64,000 nucleotides of DNA from Acholeplasmataceae bacterium (GCA_011620375.1 WOZH01000041.1:3506-67505); one strand, 5' to 3'. Positions 6,950 through 32,334 are shown, counted from the first letter of the stretch. Numbers and translations: made by a program. Notes: generated from the letters alone by a model not told the origin.

Positions 6950-8245
6950 ATGGCACTTAAACTTTCACGAGCAGAAAAAAATAAAGAGATTAATAGACGA
7001 TTTGAAATTTTTAAATCACTAATGTCTTCTTTTGTCATTGGTACAGCAGCAATTATTATTGCTGTTGTTTTCGTGCCTACTTCACCAAAAGCTGAAATTA
7101 TTAAAGCCAATGCATTGATTGATACAGTTACTTATCAAGTCTCGGTTACGGATAAAGCCAATGCACTTGATTTAACTACATTAGTTGTTTCATTGGAAAA
7201 CCAAATTGAACATTATGAACACGAAATTAGTTTGGGTGAAAGCTCAGGCTATTTTGATAGCTTAACACCCAATACAGATTATTGGTTGAACGTTTACGGC
7301 AGTAAGGGGTATGGGCAAGAGCGCTTAGATTCAATCAAATTGACCACGAGAGATAAAACTGGCGCATTTATTTTAGGTGTTGATGAGCAACAAGTCGAGT
7401 GGGAAACGACATACACGATTGATGTTTTAGTCAACGATCCTGATAACCTATATAACAGTATCAATCTTTATTATGGGTATCGATGGGAACCTGAAACTGA
7501 TTTGATGTACACAGCCATACCCATCACAACCACTAGACAGCAAATAGAGATTTTTGATATATATACAAGTTTACCGTTTCATGTATACATAGCAGGTATG
7601 TTAGACGGTGATACAGTCATATTAGATGAGCAATGGGTCACCCCATCTTTCCAATTATATGATGAAATGTTTTTAAATTATATTGGCGATGATACCATTG
7701 GGCTTATGATGTATGGCGGCATGACAGATATCGACATAGCATATCACGTCAATGTTTATCGCGGTAGCGTCTTATTGAAACGAATTGAGGTCGATATTGG
7801 CACCTCAATGCATGGATCAACATTTCCAATTTCTGGATTGTTACCTAACACGACATATCGATTGGAAGGTGTAGCGACCTATACAAATCCCCAAACATTA
7901 AGAAATGAGTCACAAATCATCTATGATGAAGAAGTGACAACTTTGGCGGATTATCAAATATCGTATCAAATCGTATCATATGAAGCATACTTGGAAGCGA
8001 CCATCACGATAGTTGATCCAAACCACTATTTCCAATTAGCATCCTATGAGTTGATTGATGTGACAGGAGAAATGCCAATTTATATCATGAGCGAAACATT
8101 TAGCTTTACAGCAAATGGTCATAGTCAATCAACCACATTCATCATCATGATACCAACTGATATTACTTATCAAGTCATCATCGATGTTAGAAGTGAAACA
8201 AATTATATGATTCGTCATATTATTTATGATGAAATAAGCGAATAG
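6950..8245 (+). CDS. Membrane-anchored surface protein with FN3/Ig-like modules
   Basis: One N-terminal TM helix followed by an acidic beta-rich region; SLTPNTDYWLNV and GLLPNTTYRLEG resemble FN3 L-x-P-x-T-x-Y motifs. Confidence 0.6.
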   Translation: MALKLSRAEKNKEINRRFEIFKSLMSSFVIGTAAIIIAVVFVPTSPKAEIIKANALIDTVTYQVSVTDKANALDLTTLVVSLENQIEHYEHEISLGESSGYFDSLTPNTDYWLNVYGSKGYGQERLDSIKLTTRDKTGAFILGVDEQQVEWETTYTIDVLVNDPDNLYNSINLYYGYRWEPETDLMYTAIPITTTRQQIEIFDIYTSLPFHVYIAGMLDGDTVILDEQWVTPSFQLYDEMFLNYIGDDTIGLMMYGGMTDIDIAYHVNVYRGSVLLKRIEVDIGTSMHGSTFPISGLLPNTTYRLEGVATYTNPQTLRNESQIIYDEEVTTLADYQISYQIVSYEAYLEATITIVDPNHYFQLASYELIDVTGEMPIYIMSETFSFTANGHSQSTTFIIMIPTDITYQVIIDVRSETNYMIRHIIYDEISE

Positions 8246-15338: not shown

Positions 15339-15367
15339 TTGACTTCGAAAGAGTCGTTTGGTACAAT
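15339..15367 (+). promoter_or_regulatory. Sigma70 promoter of the RND-tetR operon
   Basis: TTGACT-N17-TACAAT with extended -10 TG. Confidence 0.75.
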
Positions 15368-15376
15368 GGAAGAAAA

Positions 15377-15394
15377 CGACCGACCGGTCGGTCG
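15377..15394. promoter_or_regulatory. TetR-type operator
   Basis: Perfect GC-rich 18-bp palindrome CGACCGACCGGTCGGTCG just downstream of the -10 box in AT-rich DNA. Confidence 0.75.
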
Positions 15395-15417
15395 GCCTAA
15401 ACATCAAAGGAGCACAT

Positions 15418-18400
15418 ATGAGTAAATACAGTGTTAGAAAACCAATTACCGTTTTAATGGGTATATTAATTGTGGTTACATTAGGTATTTTTGCAGTCAC
15501 CAAATTACCATTGAATTTGTTTCCAGATATTAATCTTCCTTATTTGGTAACGATTACGACGTTTGAAGGAGAAAATCCTGAAACGTTAGAAGCGAGCGTG
15601 TCAGCTCCGATTGAATCTGCAGCAGCAACGGTTAATAGCTATACTGAAATCAGTTCAATGAGTTACGAACATTTTGCTGTATCGATCATTACGTTCGAAG
15701 ATGGCGCAAACATGGATTCCGCCTTTATTGAACTGAGAGAATCAATTAATAATATAGAGTTTCCGGATGGTGTTGGAAATACACGCATTCTAAGAATAAG
15801 CCCTGATATGCTTCCCGTCATGCAAGTGTCTTTATCTCAAGCATATGGTGATGATGTCACAGATGAAGAAGCACTTATTTTAAACACGGCATGGATTAAT
15901 GAATATATCATATCAGAATTAACATCGATCAGTGGGGTTGCTGATGTATCTATTAGCGGCGCAGCAGATACGGTTTTACAAATTAATCTAAATCTGACAA
16001 CACTCGATAGTTATGGGTTAACCTCTAATGATGTGTTAACCATCATCGAAGAACAAAATGTTTCTGGATTGGTTGGTGTTGCGCTTGATAATGGTGAGAT
16101 TAGAATGCTCTATTTGGGAAATAATCCATCTTCATTGACAGAAGTAGAGAATTTACCCATCTTAGAAAACGCAGGAATAATTATCAGATTAAGTGATCTT
16201 GTCACAGTAGATGGTATCAAGTATATGAATGCCAACACAGAAACGTATTCAAAAATTAATGGCAAGCAGGGCATCAATATTTCATTTCAAGCACAAACTG
16301 ATTATAGTATCACAGAAGTGACAGACAATATTTTATCTAGATTGGATGAGATTCTAGATCAGTACCCAGATGCTAGTTATGATGTGTTATTAAATCAAGG
16401 CGAGTATATTAGAGTTTCAATCAATACCGTTTTGCAAAATCTCATATTTGGTGCAATTTTAGCGGTACTCGTTTTATTCTTATTTCTAAGAGATGTTAAA
16501 CCGACATTAATTGTTGGATTGGCAATTCCTATCTCCGTTATTGCTGCATTCATGCTGATGTATTTCACAGGTGTCACCTTGAATATGGTTTCAATGGGAG
16601 GACTTGCGTTAGGCATTGGGATGCTGGTGGATAATGCGATTGTTGTGATTGAAAACATTTATCGAATGATCGGTGAAGGTAAATCGAAGCATGACGCCGC
16701 TATTTATGGTGCAAAACAAGTCGCTGGCGCCATCACTGCATCTACTTTAACAACAGTCGTCGTCTTCTTACCTATCTTATTCTTAGAAGGTATCATTAAC
16801 GAAGTCTTTGTTAATATGATGTTGACGATTGCTTACTCATTAGGTGCCTCTTTGATCATTGGTTTAACGATGGTACCGATGTTATCTGCTAGAATGCTAG
16901 ATGATAAGAAGCCAATGAAAGAAAGTAAATTTTTGCATAATGTCAAAAATGCTTATGAAAAAGCTGTAAACTTTACCATTCATCATCAAGCAATTACTTA
17001 TATTACAGTGCTTGTATTACTTGTAGGTAGTTTCTTCTTAGTGTACGCAAAAGGATTTATTATGTTACCAACTTCTGATGAAGGCTATATTGATATTACG
17101 GTTATAACAGATAGTACAGCCACATTTGCTGGTCAAGCAGAATATGCGGATTATATAACAGAACAAATCTTAGCTATTGAAGCGGTTGAAACAGTTTCTG
17201 CAACCATTGGCTCCGGAGGCGGTGGTGGTTTAGCTTTGATGCAAACCATGGTATCGGGTGGTAGCAGTGGCATCAACATGACGGTAAGTTTGCTGGATAA
17301 TCGCGCACACGATACGGCATACTATAGAAATGAAATTATCGATATATTTAACACCGTAGATTTTAGCGAATTTACAGCGTTTACAGCTTCCAATATTTTA
17401 GAAGTTAATGTCGCATCACAGGACACAACGGCTATGATTTCTGGTGCTTCCGGTATTAACATAAAAATATCCGGTTATGATTTATTGACACTTGAAGCGA
17501 TAGCTAATGATATCGCAGCTGTTTTAGCGGATGTTGAACATGTCGAGGATGTTGACAATGGGGTTGATCAAGGCGCTGACAATATTAAATTGACAGTAGA
17601 TGTCGATCAAGCGATGTTAGTAGGATTGACAGTGAGCGACATCGATGAAAATATCAATTATTTCTTCTCACTAATAGCAGGTTTAGCAGGAAGTTCAGAA
17701 ACAGTCACACTACAAATTGAAGGGGTTGACTATAATATAGAATTACCACAAAGCGAACTTAATAGCATTGATTATAGTCTCTTTGGTGATTATGAACAAT
17801 TTTTAGATGGCATCATGTTATTTGATGATGCTACTAGAATCATGATTGATGATTATATTAATCAAGGTGGATTATTATATGTCCCCAATGTATCATTGCC
17901 TACTTATACACCTGGAGAACCAGTGATGTTCATTGTTAATCCATATTTATATGTAGAAAATGGCGCAATCACCATGATGCCAACAGATCCAATGAATTCA
18001 CCATCATTAGTATCACTTGCGGTCGCACCATTATATGATGGCACAGCAACTAGTGTAACAACCGTTGAACGTGTTACGGGGTTTGCTACTATCTACACAG
18101 ATGGATCTAGTCGTTATTTAACCGTAACCGGTCAAATCGAAGACGGGTATAATGTCACATTGATTTCAAGTGATGCCACAGATGCCGTTAACGCTTATTT
18201 AGAAAGCGATGATTTCGCTGCATACGGTGGTGGATATACGGTCTCATTCGTCGGTGAAAATGAAAATATTTTAGCAGCAGTTAATGATTTAGTTATTGCA
18301 GGTTTGATTGCAATCGCATTGGTGTACATGGTTATGGCGATTCAATTCCAGTCGCTGCTTTACCCGCTCATTATCTTAGGTACAGTACCGCTAGCATTTA

Positions 18401-18828
18401 CCGGGGGTATGTTTGCACTATTGATTACAAATATGAATCTATCGATGGTTTCAATCATGGGACTTATTGTTCTTGTGGGTGTAGTTGTTAATAACGGAAT
18501 CGTGTTGATTGATTATATCAATAAATTGCGAGAAGAAGGAAAAGGCGTCAAAGAAGCGATTATTGAAGCAGGTAAAACACGTATTAGACCAATTTTCATG
18601 ACCGCACTAACAACGATTCTTGCATTGTTCATCATGGCATTAGGAATTGGTCAAGGGGCTGAATTGTTACAGCCAATGGCTGTCACAGCGATTGGTGGTC
18701 TTGTATATGCTACGGTCTTAACATTACTTGTGGTACCAGCCATTTATGCGCTTGTTAATCGTAAAAAAATTAAACTGGAAGAAGCGGAAGCTAAAAAGGA
18801 AGTTGATGGACATGTCAACGAAGGATAG
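15418..18828 (+). CDS. RND (AcrB/SwrC-like) transporter
   Basis: SVRKPITV, NLFPDINLP, GMLVDNAIVVIENI, GVVVNNGIVLID, RIRPIFMT; 12-TM layout with two large external domains. Start at ATG 15418 (RBS AAGGAG). Confidence 0.92.
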   Translation: MSKYSVRKPITVLMGILIVVTLGIFAVTKLPLNLFPDINLPYLVTITTFEGENPETLEASVSAPIESAAATVNSYTEISSMSYEHFAVSIITFEDGANMDSAFIELRESINNIEFPDGVGNTRILRISPDMLPVMQVSLSQAYGDDVTDEEALILNTAWINEYIISELTSISGVADVSISGAADTVLQINLNLTTLDSYGLTSNDVLTIIEEQNVSGLVGVALDNGEIRMLYLGNNPSSLTEVENLPILENAGIIIRLSDLVTVDGIKYMNANTETYSKINGKQGINISFQAQTDYSITEVTDNILSRLDEILDQYPDASYDVLLNQGEYIRVSINTVLQNLIFGAILAVLVLFLFLRDVKPTLIVGLAIPISVIAAFMLMYFTGVTLNMVSMGGLALGIGMLVDNAIVVIENIYRMIGEGKSKHDAAIYGAKQVAGAITASTLTTVVVFLPILFLEGIINEVFVNMMLTIAYSLGASLIIGLTMVPMLSARMLDDKKPMKESKFLHNVKNAYEKAVNFTIHHQAITYITVLVLLVGSFFLVYAKGFIMLPTSDEGYIDITVITDSTATFAGQAEYADYITEQILAIEAVETVSATIGSGGGGGLALMQTMVSGGSSGINMTVSLLDNRAHDTAYYRNEIIDIFNTVDFSEFTAFTASNILEVNVASQDTTAMISGASGINIKISGYDLLTLEAIANDIAAVLADVEHVEDVDNGVDQGADNIKLTVDVDQAMLVGLTVSDIDENINYFFSLIAGLAGSSETVTLQIEGVDYNIELPQSELNSIDYSLFGDYEQFLDGIMLFDDATRIMIDDYINQGGLLYVPNVSLPTYTPGEPVMFIVNPYLYVENGAITMMPTDPMNSPSLVSLAVAPLYDGTATSVTTVERVTGFATIYTDGSSRYLTVTGQIEDGYNVTLISSDATDAVNAYLESDDFAAYGGGYTVSFVGENENILAAVNDLVIAGLIAIALVYMVMAIQFQSLLYPLIILGTVPLAFTGGMFALLITNMNLSMVSIMGLIVLVGVVVNNGIVLIDYINKLREEGKGVKEAIIEAGKTRIRPIFMTALTTILALFIMALGIGQGAELLQPMAVTAIGGLVYATVLTLLVVPAIYALVNRKKIKLEEAEAKKEVDGHVNEG

Positions 18829-19396
18829 GATTATTGAAGTTTTGGCTAATTTGATTAAGCAAGATGAAAATATAAACGAAATCCCTATATCAAAAATCGC
18901 CGAATTGGCTGACATTGGTAAGAGCACCGTATACGAACATTTTGATAGCAAAGACGATCTTATCAAAGAAACATACGTATATCTTTCTGATTATTATCAC
19001 AAGCGTATTGTAGCACCACTAAAGCATCATACTTTTGAAGCAGCTTATAAAGAAATCACATGTAGAATCATGCGCAATGCCCAAGAAGCAAATGAGTTAA
19101 TGATGAGTATCTTAGGTGAGGGGCACAATTATAAGTTAATGACCCAGGAAGACATGAAGAAGATGATGGATGACATACAAAAGGAAGTACAGGAAATTTA
19201 TTTTAACATCATTCGTATGGGTATATCTGAGGGCATTGTTCATCTGAATCCAAGCGAATCAAAAGAAAAAGGGCATATCATTCGTGCATTGACAATGGGT
19301 CTGATTATACAGCGCATGAATGAAAATATTGATTTGTCAGAAAAAGAAGCCTTATCATATTTATATAAATATTCGGTAATCATATTAAATACATAA
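18806..19396 (+). CDS. TetR/AcrR-family regulator
   Basis: TKDRII...ISKIAELADIGKSTVYEHFDSKDDL HTH; overlaps the RND stop codon. Confidence 0.9.
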   Translation: MDMSTKDRIIEVLANLIKQDENINEIPISKIAELADIGKSTVYEHFDSKDDLIKETYVYLSDYYHKRIVAPLKHHTFEAAYKEITCRIMRNAQEANELMMSILGEGHNYKLMTQEDMKKMMDDIQKEVQEIYFNIIRMGISEGIVHLNPSESKEKGHIIRALTMGLIIQRMNENIDLSEKEALSYLYKYSVIILNT

Positions 19397-19403
19397 AGCA
19401 AAC

Positions 19404-19430
19404 GGGTGAGTTAAAACAACTCACCTTTTT
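19404..19430 (+). terminator. Intrinsic terminator after tetR
   Basis: GGTGAGTT-N5-AACTCACC-TTTTT. Confidence 0.8.
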
Positions 19431-19468
19431 GTTATGCTATAATAATCATGACAAAAGGAGATGATAAA

Positions 19469-20818
19469 ATGATGAACTTAGATCATCAAAAAGCCTTTTT
19501 TAATCAAGGGATGACAAGAGATTTGTCGTTTAGAAAGTCACAGTTAAATGCCCTGTATCATGCGATTGAGAAACATGAAAAAAACCTGTTGTTGGCACTG
19601 GAAAAAGATTTGAATAAATCGCCTTATGAAGCGTATATGACGGAAATCGGTTATGTAAAAAAATCTATTTCATTCGCCTTAAAACATCTCAATAAATGGA
19701 TGAAAACAAAACATGTAAAAACACCATACTATCAATTGTTTACGCAATCATACATTCAACCTGAACCATTAGGCATCGTTCTGATTATTGGTGCCTATAA
19801 CTACCCCGTTCAATTACTCATCGAACCATTAATAGGTGCGATTGCTGCAGGCAATACAGCGGTTTTGAAACCAAGCGAGCAGGCTGTATATACAGAACAA
19901 GCTTTAGTAGAAATGATTAGAGATACTTTTGATCAATCATATATTGACATCATCACTGGTGATGCAGCGGTCACATCATCATTATTAGATTTAAAATTCG
20001 ATCATATTTTTTTTACTGGAAGTACACGCGTTGGCAAAATCGTTTATGAAAAAGCAGCAAAACAATTGATACCGGTGACATTAGAATTGGGTGGGAAAAG
20101 TCCGGCAATTGTCACTCAAAAAGCGAATTTAAAACATAGCGCAAAACGGATTGCGTTCGGCAAATTGATTAATTCCGGGCAGACATGTATCGCACCTGAT
20201 TACGTTTATGTTGAAAAGATCATTGAAAAGGAATTCATATCTGAACTACAAAAAATGATAAAAAAGTTTTCTGATCCGCATGGAAATTATGGCGCGATGA
20301 TTACCGATAAGCACTATCAAAATATAGTGGCATTAGCCGCTGCAAACCCGCACGGAAAAACCGCTGAAAAAAATCAAGAAAAGCGTACAATAGAGCCCAT
20401 TATCATGCATCATGTATCGTGGGAAGACGACATCATGAAACGTGAAATATTTGGTCCGATCCTACCGGTATTGACTTTTGATAACACTTCAGAATTGATT
20501 GCAACTTTAAAAGAAAAAGAAAAACCACTAGCGTTATATTTATTCACTGATGACAAGGCTGAACAGCGAAAAATATTTTCTTCATTAAGTTTTGGTGGTG
20601 GGGCAATTAACGATACAATTATACATTTCGCTAATCCACATCTTCCTTTTGGTGGTGTTGGACAAAGCGGTATAGGAACATATCATGGTTATGCATCCTT
20701 TCTAACGTTTTCACACATGAAAGGATACACCAAAAAAGGCATTAAGCTAGATTTACCATTAACTTATCCACCTGCATCAGATAAAAAATTTCATATGATC
20801 AAGAAGTTCTTAAAGTGA
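19469..20818 (+). CDS. Aldehyde dehydrogenase (class 3 / YwdH-like)
   Basis: IGAYNYP, LKPSE, FFTGS, LELGGKSP, NSGQTCIAPDY, EIFGPILP, PFGGVGQSG. Confidence 0.93.
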   Translation: MMNLDHQKAFFNQGMTRDLSFRKSQLNALYHAIEKHEKNLLLALEKDLNKSPYEAYMTEIGYVKKSISFALKHLNKWMKTKHVKTPYYQLFTQSYIQPEPLGIVLIIGAYNYPVQLLIEPLIGAIAAGNTAVLKPSEQAVYTEQALVEMIRDTFDQSYIDIITGDAAVTSSLLDLKFDHIFFTGSTRVGKIVYEKAAKQLIPVTLELGGKSPAIVTQKANLKHSAKRIAFGKLINSGQTCIAPDYVYVEKIIEKEFISELQKMIKKFSDPHGNYGAMITDKHYQNIVALAAANPHGKTAEKNQEKRTIEPIIMHHVSWEDDIMKREIFGPILPVLTFDNTSELIATLKEKEKPLALYLFTDDKAEQRKIFSSLSFGGGAINDTIIHFANPHLPFGGVGQSGIGTYHGYASFLTFSHMKGYTKKGIKLDLPLTYPPASDKKFHMIKKFLK

Positions 20819-20850: not shown

Positions 20851-20889
20851 AAGATGTTAGTAGAAAAAAAAACTACTAACATCTTTTTC
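20851..20889 (+). terminator. Intrinsic terminator after the aldehyde dehydrogenase
   Basis: Perfect 13-bp stem AAGATGTTAGTAG-A9-CTACTAACATCTT followed by a T run. Confidence 0.75.
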
Positions 20890-21027
20890 TATAAATTTGC
20901 ATATCGTTAATAATATGTTATTTTTCAAGCAATAAAACATATCAATATATTTTCTATTTGTGCTTGTGATAGAATAAACACACAACGGACTATATGTCAT
21001 ATTTATATGAAAGATATGGTGATTTAT

Positions 21028-21960
21028 ATGATAGAAACAAAAACAAATGCGTATCACACCACTTTGACGTCAAGAAATTTACTGATGCTCACAATTGCTT
21101 TGGGTGTGTTATTGTTTGCCGGAGCAATTATTTTTGGGTTCTATGTGCTTTTAGTAGCAGCCGTCGCTGTCGCAGCTGCGGGACTTGTTGAACTTTTATT
21201 CTCTAGCGTTAGAAAAATAGATTTTGACTATTTTTGGTTTATCACGCCGCTGATTTTCACTTTATTGTTGCCACCATCTATCCCATTATGGATTGCGGGT
21301 GTCGGATCCTTTTTTGGATATTTTTTTGGAAAAAGTATCTTTGGTGGAGCGGGTAAGACAGTATTCAACCCAGCACTTGTTGGGATTTTGTTTGTCACCA
21401 TCTCGTTTCCTCAATTTATTTTGACAGCTTGGCTAGATCCTGTTACAGGTGTGATCGGTACGCAAACACCGTTATCATTGTTGAATAGCGGAAATGTATT
21501 TACATACACGATGTCTGATTTATTCTTTGGCTATACACCGGGTACTATCGGTGAAACATTTAGAATTGGCATTCTTGTGTTAGGCTTGTTAATGATGGCA
21601 TTGCGCGTCACTGACTGGCGCATTCCAGTCGGTATTTTGGGTACTGTATTCATCGTTACATTATTAGGTTATTACATACTACCGAGTCAATTTGCTGATC
21701 CTTACTATTCTCTATTTGTTGGTTCTGTGCTATTCGTTGCATTTTTTGTTGCTACAGAGCCAGTATCAGCACCAAAAAAACCATGGGGTAGATTGTATTA
21801 TGGCATTGGCATCGGATTATTGATTGTATTGATTAGAAATTTTGGAACATTTCCAGAAGGCACAGTATTCGCTGTGATTTTAATGAATGCCGTTGGCGCA
21901 CTGTTTGATGCGGGTAAAAAAGTAGAAAAGGTAGGTGAACTTAGTGAACAGGAATCTTAA
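21028..21960 (+). CDS. RnfD/NqrB-family membrane subunit
   Basis: K.IFGG.GKTVFNPALVG, TQTPL, GTIGET, LFVAFFVATEPVSAP, FPEGTVFAVILMN. About 310 aa (RnfD-sized). Confidence 0.88.
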   Translation: MIETKTNAYHTTLTSRNLLMLTIALGVLLFAGAIIFGFYVLLVAAVAVAAAGLVELLFSSVRKIDFDYFWFITPLIFTLLLPPSIPLWIAGVGSFFGYFFGKSIFGGAGKTVFNPALVGILFVTISFPQFILTAWLDPVTGVIGTQTPLSLLNSGNVFTYTMSDLFFGYTPGTIGETFRIGILVLGLLMMALRVTDWRIPVGILGTVFIVTLLGYYILPSQFADPYYSLFVGSVLFVAFFVATEPVSAPKKPWGRLYYGIGIGLLIVLIRNFGTFPEGTVFAVILMNAVGALFDAGKKVEKVGELSEQES

Positions 21961-22576
21961 GGCCATCGTCTTTGTTTTAATACTGGGTGTCATTACTTCA
22001 GTTGTCTTATTAGGGGCTAAATCATTGACAGAGGATAGAATTGCATTAAATAGCGATGTGAAATTGAAGTCGGCAGTACTCGATGGGTTTGATATTTCAT
22101 ATAACGCTGCAAATATTCATGATATATTTAGTCAAGAAGTGATGATATTTTATTATGAAGGATTGGCTAATGATGATAGTGACGATATTTCATTTTATTA
22201 TCATTCAAGCACTGGCGCTGTTGCTTTTGAGTTTTCAAGTGGTGGTGTTTGGGACACAATTTCAGGTGTTTTGACGCTTGAATCGGACCTTGAAACTATT
22301 CAAAGAATAGCGGTTCTATATCAGGCTGAAACACCGGGTTTGGGTGGTGTAGTTGCTACTGCCCAATATCTGAATACGTTTATTGGTATTAAGATGACAC
22401 CGCAATTAGAAATTAACAAAGATAATGCTGCAAATGCAGAAAATGAAGTTGATTCAATCACAGGGGCTACTAGAACATCAAAAGCATTTGAAAGTGTATT
22501 AAATACAACGTATGTCTATGCATTATCGATTTGGGAAGATGAAAACATAAATGTTCAAGGGTGGTTAACATCATGA
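21944..22576 (+). CDS. NqrC/RnfG-family FMN-binding subunit
   Basis: N-terminal TM, GGVWDTISG, ETPGLG, intact flavinylation motif VDSITGAT. Confidence 0.9.
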   Translation: MNRNLKAIVFVLILGVITSVVLLGAKSLTEDRIALNSDVKLKSAVLDGFDISYNAANIHDIFSQEVMIFYYEGLANDDSDDISFYYHSSTGAVAFEFSSGGVWDTISGVLTLESDLETIQRIAVLYQAETPGLGGVVATAQYLNTFIGIKMTPQLEINKDNAANAENEVDSITGATRTSKAFESVLNTTYVYALSIWEDENINVQGWLTS

Positions 22577-23202
22577 AAAAATGGATAAGATTGAAATATA
22601 CTAAGCCATATAACATTTTAAGAGATGGTATTTCCATTAATAATCCTATTGCAATTGCTGTTTTAGGTATTTGTTCTGCATTGGCTGTTACAAATAAAGT
22701 TGAAAATGCGATTGCTATGGGATTAGGTGTGACATTTGTTGTCATGGCATCTTCACTTGTTATATCGCTCTTAAGAAACTTTATTCCTTCAAAAGTGAGA
22801 ATGATTACTTACATGGTTGTTATCTCATCGTTTGTTATTGTCGTTCAATTTTTTCTACAAGCATATTTTCCAACAATCGCTGACGCATTAGGTGCGTATG
22901 TTGGATTGATTATCACAAACTGTATTGTTATGGGTAGAGCTGAGGCGTTTGCTGTTAAAAATCCTGTTAAATATTCAATTGTTGACGGGTTTGCTGCTGG
23001 TATGGGTTACACGATTGTACTGGTTTTAACAGCATCCATTCGTGAAATATTGGCATTTGGTACTTTCTTAAATATGCAGGTTATGCCAGATACATGGGTT
23101 AATTGGGTTGTCATGGCAATGGCACCAGGTGGATTCTTTATTCTTGGGTTATTTATTTGGGGTATACGCCAATGGACCAAGAATTTTGAAGAAGCCATAT
23201 AA
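22573..23202 (+). CDS. nqrD: NqrD-like membrane subunit
   Basis: NNPI...LGICSALAVT and GLIITNCIVMGRAE, with both metal-ligating Cys present. Confidence 0.8.
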   Translation: MKKWIRLKYTKPYNILRDGISINNPIAIAVLGICSALAVTNKVENAIAMGLGVTFVVMASSLVISLLRNFIPSKVRMITYMVVISSFVIVVQFFLQAYFPTIADALGAYVGLIITNCIVMGRAEAFAVKNPVKYSIVDGFAAGMGYTIVLVLTASIREILAFGTFLNMQVMPDTWVNWVVMAMAPGGFFILGLFIWGIRQWTKNFEEAI

Positions 23203-23216
23203 GGAGGAACTGATAT

Positions 23217-23789
23217 ATGAACGCATTTGAACTCTTTATTTCATCGATATTAAACAATAATATTGCGCTGGTCTTTATTCTTGGTATGTGTCCGTTGATA
23301 GCGATATCAACGAATGTTAAAAACGCTAGAGGTATGGGAATCGCTGTTGTGTTCGTCGTGACGATTACAGCAATGATCAACTGGCCTATTTATCAATTAT
23401 TGGTAGCGACAAATACAACGTATGTTAGTTATATCGTCTTTATTATAACGATTGCAGCAACCGTCCAATTTTTAGAGATTTTCTTAGAACGATTTATACC
23501 AAAACTATATAATGCATTTGGTATTTTCTTACCGCTGATTACCGTAAACTGTGTGGTTTTGGCCGTTTCGTTATTCTTTGTGAACAGGGACTATAATTTT
23601 GTTCAAACCACAACATTTGCTTTTGGTTCATCGGTTGGTTGGTTATTGGCGATTGTCTTAGTTGCCGCACTTCGAGAAAAGATGCGTCAAATTTCGAATC
23701 CACCACATGGATTACGCGGTAAAGCGATTGTGTTCTTCATGCTAGGTATCTTAGCGCTTGCCTTCATGGGCTTCACTGGATTGGTATAA
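23217..23789 (+). CDS. nqrE: NqrE-like membrane subunit
   Basis: LGMCP, LYNAFGIFLPLITVNC, GWLLAI, PHGLRG. Confidence 0.8.
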   Translation: MNAFELFISSILNNNIALVFILGMCPLIAISTNVKNARGMGIAVVFVVTITAMINWPIYQLLVATNTTYVSYIVFIITIAATVQFLEIFLERFIPKLYNAFGIFLPLITVNCVVLAVSLFFVNRDYNFVQTTTFAFGSSVGWLLAIVLVAALREKMRQISNPPHGLRGKAIVFFMLGILALAFMGFTGLV

Positions 23790-23798
23790 GGGGGGATT

Positions 23799-24884
23799 AT
23801 GATGGAATGGATTATATTACCTAGCATACTTGTGGGACTCATGCTCATCATTACAACAATCTTAATTGTGATTGAAAAACTGATGGGCGGAGATAAAGAA
23901 AAAGTTATTCACATCAATGATGACACAACTATCCCAGTTCATGGTAATGACACGTTGTTGAACGCACTGGCGAATGAAAAGATTTTTGTACCATCCGCTT
24001 GTGGGGGTAAAGCGACATGTGGCTTTTGCAAAGTAAGACTGTTGGATGATGATTCAACTTTAAAACCAACGGAAGAAGCATTTGTATCACCAGAAGAAGC
24101 AGCTCAAGGTGTACATCTATCTTGCCAAATAAAAACATATGACCAGATGAAGATAGTTTTACCTAAAGGGTTATTAACAGCTAAAGAATATCAAACGAAA
24201 ATCACACATGTAGAAGACTTAACATATGACATTAAACTGGTGAGATTCCATTTAATTGATCCTGAAACGATTGATTTTAAACCAGGTCAATATGTTCAGA
24301 TTAAAGTGCCTGGAATTGAGATTATACGTGCTTATTCGATTGCAAGTGATCCAAAGGATAAAAACAATATTGAATTATTGATTCGCTATGTGCCAAATGG
24401 ACAAGCGACAACATTTGTTCACAAAGCGCTTGAAGAGGGCGATAAGATAACCATTACTGGACCTTATGGTGATTTCTTCTTAAGGGAAGATTCTAAGCGT
24501 GATATGATTTGTATCGCTGGTGGATCGGGTAAGGCCCCAATTAGATCAATTCTTGCAAAATTGAAAGACGAAGGCATGCCAAGGAAGGTCAAGTATTTCT
24601 TTGGTGCAAGATCCAAACGTGACTTGTATTATACTGAAGAGTTTGAGCAACTTGCAAAAACATATCCAAACTTTGAATATATTCCGGCATTATCAGAACC
24701 AAAACCCGAAGATAATTGGACGGGTGAAACTGGATTGATTACCGATGTTGTCGATCGTCATACGAAAGATTTAACAGAAGCTGAAGGCTATCTGTGTGGA
24801 TCTCCTGGCATGATTGATGCATGTATTCGTATACTATCTAAGCACGCGATGAAAGACGAAAACATGCTATTTGATAAATTTTAA
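23799..24884 (+). CDS. nqrF: NqrF-like 2Fe-2S/FAD/NAD(P) oxidoreductase with N-terminal anchor
   Basis: SACGGKATCGFCKV...LSCQ, RAYSIAS, GPYGDF, GGSGKAP, GARSKRD, YLCGSPGMI, FDKF. Confidence 0.8.
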   Translation: MMEWIILPSILVGLMLIITTILIVIEKLMGGDKEKVIHINDDTTIPVHGNDTLLNALANEKIFVPSACGGKATCGFCKVRLLDDDSTLKPTEEAFVSPEEAAQGVHLSCQIKTYDQMKIVLPKGLLTAKEYQTKITHVEDLTYDIKLVRFHLIDPETIDFKPGQYVQIKVPGIEIIRAYSIASDPKDKNNIELLIRYVPNGQATTFVHKALEEGDKITITGPYGDFFLREDSKRDMICIAGGSGKAPIRSILAKLKDEGMPRKVKYFFGARSKRDLYYTEEFEQLAKTYPNFEYIPALSEPKPEDNWTGETGLITDVVDRHTKDLTEAEGYLCGSPGMIDACIRILSKHAMKDENMLFDKF

Positions 24885-24894
24885 AAAGGCCTAT

Positions 24895-24924
24895 AAAAAA
24901 AGCATCTCAATGAGGTGCTTTATT
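24895..24924. terminator. Bidirectional terminator between nqrF-like and the XRE repressor
   Basis: A6-AGCATCTC-AAT-GAGGTGCT-TT (one G-U pair). Confidence 0.7.
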
Positions 24925-25285
24925 CTTTACTATCGGTTTCTTCTAATTCATAGGCTTTGGATAGCAGGAGATTTTTTCCTTTTACGGAAAGTTTTTGGAT
25001 AATTCGTAGTAACTCTCTAGTAATCGTATCGCTATGATGATAACTGTTACCACTATCTTCCGATAATGTATAGCCGCTTTTAACACGATCACCGATAACG
25101 AGATAATCAATGGTTACGCCAAGAAAATCAGCGATTTTAGTCATTGTAGACATGCTCATATTTTCAGAGCGTCGTTGAAAAAGACTGGAAAGTGTCGCAT
25201 AGGGTATACCCGTTTCGTCGCACAATGATTTTCTAGTCTTTCGTTGAGACTTTAATTGATATGTGATGCGATCATAAATGTCCAT
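24920..25285 (-). CDS. XRE-family (cI-like) repressor
   Basis: TRKSLCDETGIPYATLSSL...KIADFLGVTIDYL HTH; C-terminal helix ELLRIIQKLS..GK; no S24 peptidase domain. Confidence 0.85.
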   Translation of the reverse strand: MDIYDRITYQLKSQRKTRKSLCDETGIPYATLSSLFQRRSENMSMSTMTKIADFLGVTIDYLVIGDRVKSGYTLSEDSGNSYHHSDTITRELLRIIQKLSVKGKNLLLSKAYELEETDSKE

Positions 25286-25354
25286 GCTGTCCCTCATTTC
25301 ATAATCATCATATCATCGATTATGGCTTAAGCATGATAGCATTTATGTGTTTTA

Positions 25355-29380: not shown

Positions 29381-30727
29381 ATGCAAAAAGTTCGTGTGCG
29401 CTACGCACCGAGTCCAACGGGATTACTCCATATTGGAAATGCTAGAACAGCGCTATTTAATTATCTTTTCGCACGTCATTATGGTGGTGATTTCATCATC
29501 CGCATTGAAGATACGGATGTTGCTAGAAATGTCAAAAATGGTGAAGCGTCACAATTTAAATATTTGAAATGGTTAGGCATCAATTGGGATGAATCACCGG
29601 ACAAACCGGGAGCATTCGGTCCTTATCGACAACTTGAAAGATTGGCTATATATCAGGATTATGCCAATCAACTGTTGGAACGAGGACTCGCTTATAAAGA
29701 ATATCGTGAAAATAGTGAAAAATATGCGATTCGTTTTAAAGTGCCTATGGGCGAAGTGTACGCATTTAGCGATTTGGTTCGTGGTGACCTTTCATTTGAA
29801 TCAAAAGAAGTTGAAGACTGGATTATCATGAAAGATAATGGGATTCCGACATATAATTTCGCCGTGGTTATCGATGATCATTTAATGGAAATCACGCATG
29901 TATTCCGCGGTGAAGAACATATCACAAACACACCAAAACAGATTATGGTATATCGCGCATTTGATTGGGAACCCCCGCTATTTGGACATATGACAATCAT
30001 CGTTAATGAAAAAAAGAAAAAGTTGTCAAAACGTGACAAAGATGTCGTCCAGTTCATTTCTGAATATGCCGACATGGGATATTTGCCAGAAGCCATATTT
30101 AATTTCATCGCTTTACTTGGGTGGTCTCCACCGACAAATAAAGAAATCTTATCGCATGATGAAATGATTGAACAGTTTGATACAAAGCGTTTGACAAAAG
30201 CACCATCGATGTTCGATAAAGAAAAATTAGCATTTATCAACAGCAAGTATATCAAAGCACTTGATGTCGAAACACTCGCTCGTTTGGCCAAACCATACTT
30301 AGAAAAGGCAAGTATTGCCATACCTTCTGAAGATTGGTTAAAATTGCTAGCGGAATTATTTCAAGACCGCATGACACACATCGGTGAAATCGTCACATTA
30401 TATCATGCATTCTTCCACGATGATTTCAAACTAACTGATGAAGCATATCAATTTCTTGTTGAACAAAAAAGTTTAACATTGATTGAAACATTTAAAAATC
30501 TGCTTGAGCAGTCAGATATGTCTGTAGCATCGATTGAACAAGCAATCAAACAAACAGGGAAAGATACGGAAACAAAAGGTAAAGCGTTGTGGATGGGACT
30601 AAGAATTGCCTCGACGGGTGATATGCATGGTCCGAGTCTACCAGTGGCTTTATGCTTACTTGGAAGAGAACGTGTACTTTCAAGACTAAATGACGTTATC
30701 AAAGGATTGAGAGGTATTATATCATGA
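29381..30727 (+). CDS. gltX: Glutamate-tRNA ligase
   Basis: RYAPSPTGLLHIGNART, RIEDTD, PTYNFAVVIDD, RGEEH, KLSKR. Confidence 0.97.
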   Translation: MQKVRVRYAPSPTGLLHIGNARTALFNYLFARHYGGDFIIRIEDTDVARNVKNGEASQFKYLKWLGINWDESPDKPGAFGPYRQLERLAIYQDYANQLLERGLAYKEYRENSEKYAIRFKVPMGEVYAFSDLVRGDLSFESKEVEDWIIMKDNGIPTYNFAVVIDDHLMEITHVFRGEEHITNTPKQIMVYRAFDWEPPLFGHMTIIVNEKKKKLSKRDKDVVQFISEYADMGYLPEAIFNFIALLGWSPPTNKEILSHDEMIEQFDTKRLTKAPSMFDKEKLAFINSKYIKALDVETLARLAKPYLEKASIAIPSEDWLKLLAELFQDRMTHIGEIVTLYHAFFHDDFKLTDEAYQFLVEQKSLTLIETFKNLLEQSDMSVASIEQAIKQTGKDTETKGKALWMGLRIASTGDMHGPSLPVALCLLGRERVLSRLNDVIKGLRGIIS

Positions 30728-32334
30728 AGAAATATGTACTCATTGTATTAACCATCATTAGCCTATTTGCTTTAGTGGCGTGTAAAGGTGAAGATACTGT
30801 TGAAAACAACACAGCGATTACGGCTGAATTCAGCGACCCTGAAATCAATCAAAACAGTATTAAAATCTTATTGACCATGGCAGATCCAGATAATGACATC
30901 ACTGGAACAGTTTATGTTTATTTATATGATAGCAATGACGAATACATCTCCAAGAGGAGTTATAACATTGATGAAGACGATATTTTAGGAGATGGTGTAT
31001 CTGTCACATTTACATCATTGGGTGTTGAACAATCATATTATTTAGAAGTGACAGCCACTGTTGAATTGGACAACGTTTTAATTGAAACTTATGAATTTAC
31101 GACCGTCGGTGTCATACACATCGCTACAGTTGAAGCATTTTTGGAAATGGATTCCTATCGTGGCGCTGATTATGTTTTAGATAATGATTTAGATTTTACG
31201 GGTATAGCATTTGTTTCACCATTTGGTAGTAGTTATTTCTCAGGTACGTTTGATGGACAGGGATATACTTTAAGTAATATTGATATAACAACGACGAAAT
31301 CGACTACAAACGCAGCAAATAATTATTATTATATCGGTGTATTTGGTTATATCAGTTCATCAGCTGAAATCCATGACCTCATTTTGGACAATGTCACTAT
31401 CGGTTCTCAGACAGAACCCGCTGTGCTTAATAATTTTGCTAGAGTTGGATTTTTAGGTGGATATGTCGCATCATCAAATGCTAAAATTCATGATGTTACT
31501 GTTTCGAATAGTCATGCATATATCGAATCCAACAGTGAAAACTATGTTATTACAGGTGGTCTTGTAGGTGAATTAAAAGGCGAGTTATTACGTAGTACAA
31601 TCACAAATTCGAGCATTAATCTTACAACAACCTCCCCACAAAATGATGGTAAGTTCCTCGTTAGAATGGGTGGTGCAGTTGGTTTCTTAGAACAAAATGC
31701 TGTACTTCAAGACGTCAATGCAGATGTCGATTTAACATATCATTTAAATGGCGATAGCTTTGTTGATGAAGATCGTTTAAAAATCGCGATTGGTGGTGTT
31801 GTTGGCGACAACAACGCAATCAATACATCGAATAGTTTGATTAATGTCGTTGCAGTGGGTGATATCGATGTTACGATTGATGTCAACGCAAGCGAAGAGA
31901 TGACAACTGGTAGCTTAACATTATATGTCGGCGGTTTAGTGGGTTATTCATCAACAAAATTGTTAGATGCATTCTTTGCTGGCAGTATTCATGTCACACA
32001 AAATGAAACCGTTAATGACGCAGCCATGAGCATGAATCTTTATGTCGGAGCGTTGATTGGTCGATATGGAACAAAAGCGCTTAGTCAACGATTAGTTTGG
32101 GTTTCAGATGGTGATGTCGTCACGCTTGATTTTGACAGTAACTCGATTGCATATACCGATAGTCTATTTGGAGAAAAAATTGGTACAACAGATCACATTT
32201 GCGGTGTTTATGGTGCTGAAAGTTATGTTATTAATACGATTGCACAAGCACTAACGGCACCAGCGATTACTGATATGACAGATTATTTTTCAAGTGATTT
32301 TGTCAATAATGCATATGCGAATTTGGTTGGTTAA
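30724..32334 (+). CDS. Lipoprotein with FN3-like and GLUG/beta-helix-like repeats
   Basis: Lipobox FALVA-C; Y.LDNDLDF, FSGTFDGQGYTLSN, repeated GGLVG/GGVVG/GALIG motifs. Confidence 0.7.
   Translation: MKKYVLIVLTIISLFALVACKGEDTVENNTAITAEFSDPEINQNSIKILLTMADPDNDITGTVYVYLYDSNDEYISKRSYNIDEDDILGDGVSVTFTSLGVEQSYYLEVTATVELDNVLIETYEFTTVGVIHIATVEAFLEMDSYRGADYVLDNDLDFTGIAFVSPFGSSYFSGTFDGQGYTLSNIDITTTKSTTNAANNYYYIGVFGYISSSAEIHDLILDNVTIGSQTEPAVLNNFARVGFLGGYVASSNAKIHDVTVSNSHAYIESNSENYVITGGLVGELKGELLRSTITNSSINLTTTSPQNDGKFLVRMGGAVGFLEQNAVLQDVNADVDLTYHLNGDSFVDEDRLKIAIGGVVGDNNAINTSNSLINVVAVGDIDVTIDVNASEEMTTGSLTLYVGGLVGYSSTKLLDAFFAGSIHVTQNETVNDAAMSMNLYVGALIGRYGTKALSQRLVWVSDGDVVTLDFDSNSIAYTDSLFGEKIGTTDHICGVYGAESYVINTIAQALTAPAITDMTDYFSSDFVNNAYANLVG

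Follow-up and report, generated by a model that had tools for sequence, protein, structure and literature searches.

A widespread A-less NqrBCDEF operon from an uncultured Acholeplasmataceae bacterium probably encodes an NADH dehydrogenase complex without the quinone pocket of Nqr

Two redox-driven sodium pumps of an ancient class have entered the textbooks, Rnf and Nqr, the latter also a target for antibiotics. Here we analyse a further arrangement of their parts, an nqrBCDEF-like operon lacking a gene for the A subunit, in a stretch of 64,000 nucleotides from an Acholeplasmataceae bacterium (GCA_011620375.1, WOZH01000041.1:3506-67505). This whole stretch is called the window below; coordinates are positions in it, and related loci are labelled L001 and so on. 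The A-less gene content is not new. It was noted in 2014 for Thermotoga thermarum / Pseudothermotoga lettingae, where the electron acceptor was called unknown, as it was in the later papers. It appeared again in the Clostridium ultunense paper (2018), which suggested an acceptor more negative than quinone, and in the announcement of Candidatus Izimaplasma ZiA1 (2018), with Acholeplasma palmae cited. The window thus adds one more member to an uncharacterised Nqr/Rnf variant, for which we found no biochemical study in the literature searched. The published clusters share gene content and order with our operon, also lack NqrA and come from anaerobic fermenters or syntrophs that have Rnf as well; their membership in the same clade is taken from their descriptions. 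They are annotations only, and mention neither a short B subunit, an F subunit without insert, the state of the B flavin site nor a sixth gene. What appears to be new here, from sequence comparison, is the invariant input half, the relaxation of the flavin site in B, the sixth gene, and the elaborations seen in locus L056 and beside cydAB.

Among characterised complexes, the Na+-translocating Nqr of Vibrio cholerae (Na+-NQR; structures 7XK3 and 8A1U) shares with the operon the order B-C-D-E-F, a membrane-anchored NqrF, the cysteines of D and E, the C threonine that carries flavin mononucleotide (FMN) and three acidic residues. In contrast to the operon, it has NqrA, about 80 more N-terminal residues in B with the pocket helices, and residues 178-206 plus a 9-aa loop in NqrF. 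According to a review of Nqr, amphipathic helices at the N-terminus of NqrB form the quinone and inhibitor pocket, as the earlier reading of this window had also held, while NqrA is a cofactor-less homologue of RnfC with no assigned direct role. The absence of the NqrB N-terminus hence weighs more than that of NqrA. In comparison with Rnf (Clostridium tetanomorphum 7ZC6, Acetobacterium woodii 9ERI), B matches RnfD in size and over its full length, and C, D and E score similarly against Rnf and Nqr. However, Rnf has RnfC as NAD+ output and RnfB as ferredoxin input, whereas the operon has an NqrF-type NADH input instead. A two-subunit NQR/RNF-like system (Meheust et al. 2021; 2024 preprint) is likewise a partial Nqr/Rnf, was proposed as a one-way route for electrons from NAD(P)H to an FMN domain outside the cytosol, and also does not conserve the flavinylation site of its B-like subunit. 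It consists only of a B fused to an NAD-binding domain (PF00175) and a C-like protein, whereas our B is unfused (PF03116 only), D and E are present and F is separate. The 2021 supplementary tables, as stored, hold no Acholeplasma or Tenericutes entries. Finally, flavin-based extracellular electron transfer in Listeria (FmnB/PplA) also uses ApbE-type flavinylated FMN_bind domains at the outer face as exit. It is fed by another membrane module (Ndh2/quinone/EetAB), and no PplA-like lipoprotein or FmnB adjoins the operon here.

The operon is real, and its anatomy is as a previous reading of the window, made from its sequence alone (the sequence-only reading), had described it: five coupled genes in nqr order, with a terminator on either side and no A subunit between them. 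The features are as follows.

20851-20885, plus strand: upstream hairpin, 13-bp stem, -15.4 kcal/mol, z -6.0, followed by UUUUUC; intrinsic-terminator-like, ends the aldehyde dehydrogenase gene
21007-21960, plus strand: subunit B (RnfD/NqrB family), 317 aa, or 310 aa from the ATG at 21028; PF03116, 248 bits
21448-21474, plus strand: flavinylation-site region of B, GVIGTQTPL (Thr154), aligned with RnfD D.VTTATPL and NqrB DGYSGAT
21935-22576, plus strand: subunit C (NqrC/RnfG family), 213 aa; FMN_bind, 1.2e-13
22451-22471, plus strand: flavinylation motif of C, DSITGAT (Thr179), aligned with the SGAT site of V. cholerae NqrC
22561-23202, plus strand: subunit D (NqrD/RnfE family), 213 aa; PF02508
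23217-23789, plus strand: subunit E (NqrE/RnfA family), 190 aa; PF02508
23799-24884, plus strand: subunit F (compact NqrF), 361 aa; Fer2, FAD_binding_6 and NAD_binding_1 (Pfam)
24899-24921, plus strand: downstream hairpin, 10 bp, -11.9 kcal/mol, z -5.4; terminator 3' of F, shared with the convergent helix-turn-helix (HTH) gene
24920-25297, minus strand: HTH gene, convergent to F

The five open reading frames (ORFs; 21007-24884) lie on one strand, are intact and translationally coupled, and are separated by gaps or overlaps of at most 15 nt; D has an internal ATG at 22573 that overlaps the stop codon of C. For B the 310-aa start is probable, because a Shine-Dalgarno-like GGTGA precedes the ATG at 21028 by 5 nt, and the length of about 310 aa proposed before is thus probably right. 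All motif strings quoted in the sequence-only reading were found in the proteins (GVW/ETPGLG, ICSALAVT, PLITVNC, KPGQYVQIKVPGIEIIRAYS and a terminal FDKF). The upstream hairpin insulates the operon from upstream transcription, and the operon is an autonomous, terminator-bounded unit.

Subunit F is closest to NqrF, with 280 bits in NCBIfam (nqrF, TIGR01941, cut-off 295) versus 200 for MmoC and 193 for BenC, and with 1.7e-61 against solved NqrF versus 8.5e-40 for the next reductase. It has an N-terminal membrane helix, a plant-type 2Fe-2S site (Cys68/74/77/109), the RAYS site for flavin adenine dinucleotide (FAD) at 177-180, an NADH domain and a C-terminal Phe361. That F is compact, without the long insert, was borne out by alignment: the roughly 30 residues of NqrF at 178-206, and the 9-aa loop, have no counterpart. 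Its NADH-site motif, GARSKRD as against GARSKRE in NqrF, hints at NADH specificity. Subunit C combines an N-terminal membrane anchor with an extracytoplasmic FMN-binding domain. It scores 60-67 bits with nqrC (66.6; cut-off 255) and 44 bits with rnfG, and 1.5e-7 and 3e-6 against solved NqrC and RnfG. Its DSITGAT agrees with the [ST]GA[ST] pattern for covalent FMN, and flavinylation is therefore predicted. Subunit D gives 228 bits with nqrD (cut-off 235) and 179-187 bits with rnfE, and 8.2e-47 and 1.4e-44 against the NqrD and RnfE structures. By alignment, its Cys38/Cys121 correspond to NqrD C29/C112, ligands of the intramembrane 2Fe-2S cluster, and its Asp142 to NqrD Asp133. For subunit E the values are 193.5 bits with nqrE (cut-off 247.6) and 188.6 with rnfA, 1.7e-49 for NqrE and 2.2e-41 for RnfA; Cys25/Cys112 align with NqrE C26/C120 and the Glu of FLEIF with NqrE Glu95.

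Subunit B departs from Nqr. Its best family match is rnfD (184.7 bits, cut-off 207), with nqrB at 162 bits (cut-off 414), and solved RnfD (8e-42 and 4e-41) likewise comes before NqrB (7.6e-33). The alignment with RnfD runs from end to end, residues 20-300 against 20-297 of 310, while that with V. cholerae NqrB begins only at NqrB residue 125, in agreement with the earlier statement that B is without the long N-terminal region of NqrB. The predicted B is RnfD-sized and without the N-terminal helices from which NqrB builds its quinone pocket. An acidic residue aligned with NqrB-D397 is kept and NqrB-D346 is replaced by Glu. By its sequence, the gene product set is thus a five-subunit complex of the Rnf/Nqr superfamily, in which an Rnf-like core (B, C, D, E) is joined to an NqrF-type NADH dehydrogenase subunit. 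We regard it as very probable that the operon encodes an A-less, quinone-pocket-less, Nqr-type NADH dehydrogenase complex. The name "Na+-transporting NADH:ubiquinone oxidoreductase" given in databases is probably wrong or misleading for quinone-free hosts.

Scanning one genome per species, we found relatives of the compact F in at least 518 genomes. Counts for the Tenericutes clade come from the best 80 relatives, which belong to Acholeplasmataceae, Izemoplasmatales, Mariniplasma and metagenome-assembled genomes (MAGs) labelled 'Bacilli', and include two cultured carriers, Paracholeplasma vituli (L062) and Peloplasma aerotolerans (L066, strain M4Ah), the latter with the five-gene block. A distant clade was represented by 80 further loci (L083-L162), obtained from metagenomes by searching with compact F proteins that share 38-51% identity with the F of the window; its named members are Sphaerochaetaceae, other Spirochaetia and a cultured Pleomorphochaeta sp. 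Of the loci that extend to B, 75/75 in the Tenericutes clade have the order B-C-D-E-F with a B of 299-344 aa, and the same order and short B were seen in 52/52 of the distant clade. The five-gene block stays whole where the flanks differ. A chance arrangement is ruled out, since no related locus with enough upstream sequence lacks the block. Our scans place it in several phyla, in wall-less Tenericutes and in Spirochaetota. The window itself is syntenic with the MAG chromosome OY775910.1 at 89% identity. Oil-field metagenomes contain nearly the same sequence (0.96 and 0.84 of sampled words), and metagenomes from groundwater and landfill contain more distant forms of it, which makes the host an uncultured subsurface relative of the Acholeplasmataceae.

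Conservation is strongest on the input side. In the Tenericutes clade, Cys68/74/77/109, RAYS and Phe361 of F are invariant in 81/81 orthologues, both cysteines of D in 77/77 and of E in 79/79, and Thr179 of C in 76/76, with Thr or Ser in 55/56 of the distant clade. The predicted input chain, formed by FAD and 2Fe-2S in F, the cysteines in D and E and the FMN-threonine in C, is thus invariant and under strict constraint. This bears on the view that the operon is a decaying remnant of a full Nqr or Rnf operon. The NCBIfam pattern over the five subunits is indeed a mosaic, all five proteins fall below their equivalog cut-offs, and the flavin site in the window's B is off-consensus. However, the frames are intact and coupled, cofactor ligands are invariant over 76-81 orthologues, and the same block is found in at least 518 species of several phyla, which makes decay extremely improbable.

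No output part of either known complex accompanies the operon. By Pfam, none of NqrA, RnfC, RnfB or ApbE is encoded among the 40 other ORFs scanned across the 64-kb window, two of which had no match at all. None was found beside the operon in about 125 related loci, and no neighbour resembling them recurs in either clade. A 4Fe-4S motif was found in 0/121 flanking ORFs of NqrA or RnfC size, and ten same-strand upstream singletons are unrelated enzymes. Downstream of the operon there is no nqrM or apbE.

An RnfC borrowed from a separate rnfCDGEAB cluster might dock on the RnfD-like B, so that the complex would work as an ion-coupled transhydrogenase or redox balancer, the first of three electron exits offered by the sequence-only reading. 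B is indeed nearer to RnfD than to NqrB, and a complete Rnf is present in every published carrier: P. lettingae, C. ultunense, Izimaplasma ZiA1 and Peloplasma aerotolerans, whose species description reports rnfCDGEAB elsewhere in the genome. The literature also credits acholeplasmas with 'the Rnf complex', which may mean either rnfCDGEAB or the A-less operon. Yet F keeps the NADH-site motif of NqrF, and a loop from NADH to NAD+ would therefore be futile. Moreover, rnfC is not found near the operon in about 125 loci, the operon is autonomous and terminator-bounded, and anaerobic fermenters would be expected to have Rnf in any case. RnfC sharing is thus disfavoured, and we consider it unlikely.

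The second exit proposed was exchange with ferredoxin. Here ferredoxin or flavodoxin would be the partner in an Rnf-like reaction running in either direction, with F in the role of RnfC and another docking site in place of RnfB. The hosts are ferredoxin-using fermenters; pyruvate:ferredoxin oxidoreductase (PFOR) and hydrogenases are reported for Peloplasma in its species description, and L163 has POR genes close to the operon. Against this, neither RnfB nor another polyferredoxin occurs in or near any operon, leaving the complex without a docking module, and electron transfer from NADH to ferredoxin would be uphill and would duplicate the co-resident Rnf. We therefore judge a ferredoxin partner to be highly unlikely.

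The conserved ligands and the solved Nqr and Rnf structures suggest the order of a relay. On the cytoplasmic side, the FAD of F would take up the electrons of NADH. Single electrons would then pass through the 2Fe-2S cluster of F to an intramembrane 2Fe-2S cluster held by the cysteine pairs of D and E, and from there across the membrane to an FMN bound covalently to Thr179 of C at the outer face. The relay is probably coupled to the export of Na+ (or H+), as in Nqr and Rnf, because the acidic residues at the positions of NqrB-D397, NqrD-D133 and NqrE-E95 are conserved; from V. cholerae mutagenesis we take these to be Na+-transport sites. Electrons may then leave from the outer-face flavins, i.e., from the FMN on C, perhaps via the FMN of B, which would also lie near the outer face. 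They would not return via a riboflavin in B to a cytoplasmic quinone or NAD+ site. The acceptor would be extracytoplasmic or at the membrane surface and would differ by lineage, with the C domain directly exposed in wall-less cells. An exit from the outer-face flavins, the third proposed by the sequence-only reading, is our tentative preference.

In part this preference is drawn from the fate of the flavin site in B. Thr154 is present in the window, but its motif is off-consensus, with Gly for Asp at -6 and Gln for Ala at -1. The -6 position is naturally variable in the C subunits of the family, so that the bulky residue at -1 is the odd feature. The 73 orthologues of the Tenericutes clade fall into three sets: a canonical FMN-threonine site is seen in 31, the Thr stands in a degenerate motif in 32, including the subclade of the window, and about ten have neither Thr nor Ser. 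The loop is deleted in L008, L009, L013, L014 and L056, and the residue is replaced in L073, L074 and L076; L069 and L075 are ambiguous. The Thr was lost in at least three separate groups of this clade. Because everything upstream is intact in these lineages, their chain cannot go further than C or the step just beyond it, and such lineages, which drop the FMN of B yet keep the upstream chain, favour an outer-face exit.

Some relatives carry elaborations of the complex. In L056 (5857-8758) C has grown to 646 aa with four tandem NqrC-type FMN domains (one DMITGAT and three PLAGAT sites), beside a B whose FMN-attachment loop is deleted; this four-domain C resembles multi-flavinylated extracytosolic proteins. 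In L076 (2211-11035), and also in L073 and L074, a tightly packed array of ten genes comprises cydA, cydB, a fusion of an RnfD-like protein with FMN_bind (528 aa), two Rnf-Nqr paralogues without Cys ligands, and B-C-D-E-F, with the FMN-Thr of B lost. Electrons enter cytochrome bd from its periplasmic side. The CydA of these arrays has 37 residues in place of the periplasmic Q-loop of about 145 residues in E. coli CydA, which suggests that this cytochrome bd may be supplied with electrons by a flavin domain instead of quinol. In the distant clade, a sixth gene directly follows F in 53/80 loci (among L083-L162, e.g., L091:11122-11589; also L163:9001-9459). Its product is a soluble, cysteine-free protein of about 155 aa, annotated as hypothetical, with invariant His/Asp (TDLHIHFVRDH). 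It has no relative in Pfam, NCBIfam or PDB sequences and no recognisable cofactor site. Its AlphaFold2 model is confident (predicted local distance difference test score, pLDDT, 88.6) but has no fold relative in the PDB, with a best template-modelling (TM) score of about 0.2. No homologue was found in the Tenericutes loci or the window. As partners of the complex we consider three candidates: the product of the orphan sixth gene, the cytochrome bd without Q-loop and the C with several FMN domains. An outer-face exit is favoured in that the last two of these, like the FMN_bind fusion, are elaborations sitting on the outside, in that no cytoplasmic output part was found beside the operon in the Tenericutes clade, and in that C is directly exposed in wall-less cells.

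Several observations weigh against an outer-face exit. The B of the window retains its threonine, as do most orthologues, and so does the sister clade in 50/50 loci; the B flavin is therefore normally used. L056, L073, L074 and L076 are few cases and belong to other lineages than the window. No gene for an extracellular partner adjoins the operon in the window, and ApbE, required to flavinylate C, is absent from the scanned window ORFs and from the recurrent neighbours in related loci. Ion coupling, though probable, is argued from conserved residues only. The physiology of Peloplasma aerotolerans points in the same direction, since its species description reports no growth stimulation by anthraquinone-2,6-disulfonate (AQDS), ferrihydrite, nitrate, sulfate or arsenate, and insignificant O2 consumption, even though the yield doubled at 2% O2. 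Elemental sulfur (S0) and thiosulfate were stimulating, with only trace sulfide formed; the Nqr-like operon is not mentioned in that description. Exit through the outer-face FMN hence gained some comparative support from the B threonine losses, L056 and the CydA arrays, but for common extracellular acceptors it does not agree with the physiology of Peloplasma.

The B threonine is retained in 50/50 loci of the distant clade and, within the Tenericutes clade, in about 86% of the orthologues, that of the window among them, which would fit an exit on the cytoplasmic side via B. Electrons would then pass from the FMN of C to the FMN and riboflavin of B and on to a membrane-borne or soluble acceptor reduced directly at B, such as exogenous menaquinone or a small redox protein, and the complex would be a pump of minimal design between NADH and that acceptor. 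NqrA would not be needed; it has neither cofactor nor assigned direct function, and its loss need not disable such a route. The cydAB genes adjoining the operon in L073, L074 and L076 hint at a link to a quinol-type oxidase, and the soluble product of the sixth gene could be a cytoplasmic partner in the sister clade. However, the sole known quinone pocket, built by the N-terminal helices of NqrB, is missing, and the adjoining CydA has no Q-loop. Peloplasma has no detectable respiratory quinones and no terminal oxidase genes according to its description, so that the earlier expectation of quinone-free Mollicutes holds for a cultured carrier. The window and the Tenericutes loci yielded no copy of the sixth gene, whose product lacks cysteines, a recognisable cofactor site and a fold relative. 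Finally, lineages without the B threonine keep the rest of the chain intact. We regard exit via B as possible but doubtful, and continue to favour the outer-face flavins.

As to origin, the review derives Nqr from Rnf through the loss of rnfB and the acquisition of a reductase of the ferredoxin-NADP+ reductase (FNR) type, in line with the sequence-only reading, which had gone on to call the operon an evolutionary intermediate. This status as an intermediate is not established. NqrA descends from RnfC, and a lineage in which both are missing cannot lie on the direct path. The A-less family is more simply read as a widespread side branch that split off after recruitment of F and then lost the RnfC/NqrA cap. 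The short B and the insert-less F are presumably retained ancestral states, and the membrane anchor of F is shared with Nqr. An exhaustive search returned many clusters, at 50% identity, of compact anchored F, along with soluble reductases and canonical NqrF, the latter of about 405-430 aa. In a neighbour-joining tree (200 bootstraps) of 114 proteins (41 compact anchored forms, 15 canonical NqrF and 58 soluble reductases), the anchored forms group together and most canonical NqrF are nested among compact ones; support at deep nodes is about zero, and no polarity is drawn from it.

A resistance-nodulation-division (RND) transporter, a TetR regulator and the aldehyde dehydrogenase occupy window positions 15358-20818 upstream of the operon, an arrangement shared with L001. 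Aldehyde dehydrogenase genes are near the operon in eight Tenericutes-clade loci and directly upstream in four, too few for a functional link. Other neighbours in the window are the HTH protein, a uracil/xanthine permease and ribosomal proteins. Two large ORFs, at 6950-8245 (431 aa) and 30724-32334 (536 aa), have no Pfam match; a 538-aa counterpart of the latter, equally without Pfam match, lies at the syntenic position 16926-18542 of L001. As replacements for NqrA or RnfC in the Tenericutes clade we considered and rejected RidA, HtpG, ribonucleotide reductase, a beta-eliminating lyase, malic enzyme and aldehyde dehydrogenase, each unrelated and present in at most 19 of 78 loci. Sporadic redox neighbours elsewhere, possible hints to electron sinks, are rubrerythrin (4 loci, e.g., L111:3720-4304), a flavodiiron-type protein (3 loci, e.g., L138:4397-5620) and a multihaem cytochrome (1 locus, L137:1701-3209). 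A protein resembling CoA-disulfide reductase, with rhodanese, TusA and DsrE domains, adjoins the operon in six loci (e.g., L070:11036-13540). The classical membrane-bound NADH oxidase of Acholeplasma was considered as the identity of the complex and rejected, the ZiA1 announcement implying that most classical acholeplasmas are without the operon.

We may speculate that the family forms a third functional branch beside Rnf and Nqr, an NADH-driven ion pump whose covalent flavins at the outer face would deliver electrons to lineage-specific partners without quinone, such as the cytochrome bd lacking a Q-loop in some Acholeplasmataceae or the row of four FMN domains in another, with an orphan-fold sixth subunit in the sister clade; at present this is a doubtful, if attractive, extension of our preferred exit. 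In any case, a third, output-less architecture is present in hundreds of species of anaerobic fermenters, to which Thermotogota and Clostridia are added by the genome papers. It follows that a common membrane route of NADH disposal is still uncharacterised. The question of its acceptor has narrowed, in that the known quinone pocket is gone besides NqrA, the input half is invariant and the B flavin is dispensable in some lineages. The comparative leads make this question more testable, and the cultured carriers Paracholeplasma vituli, Peloplasma aerotolerans and Pleomorphochaeta sp. are better suited as test organisms than the uncultured host of the window.

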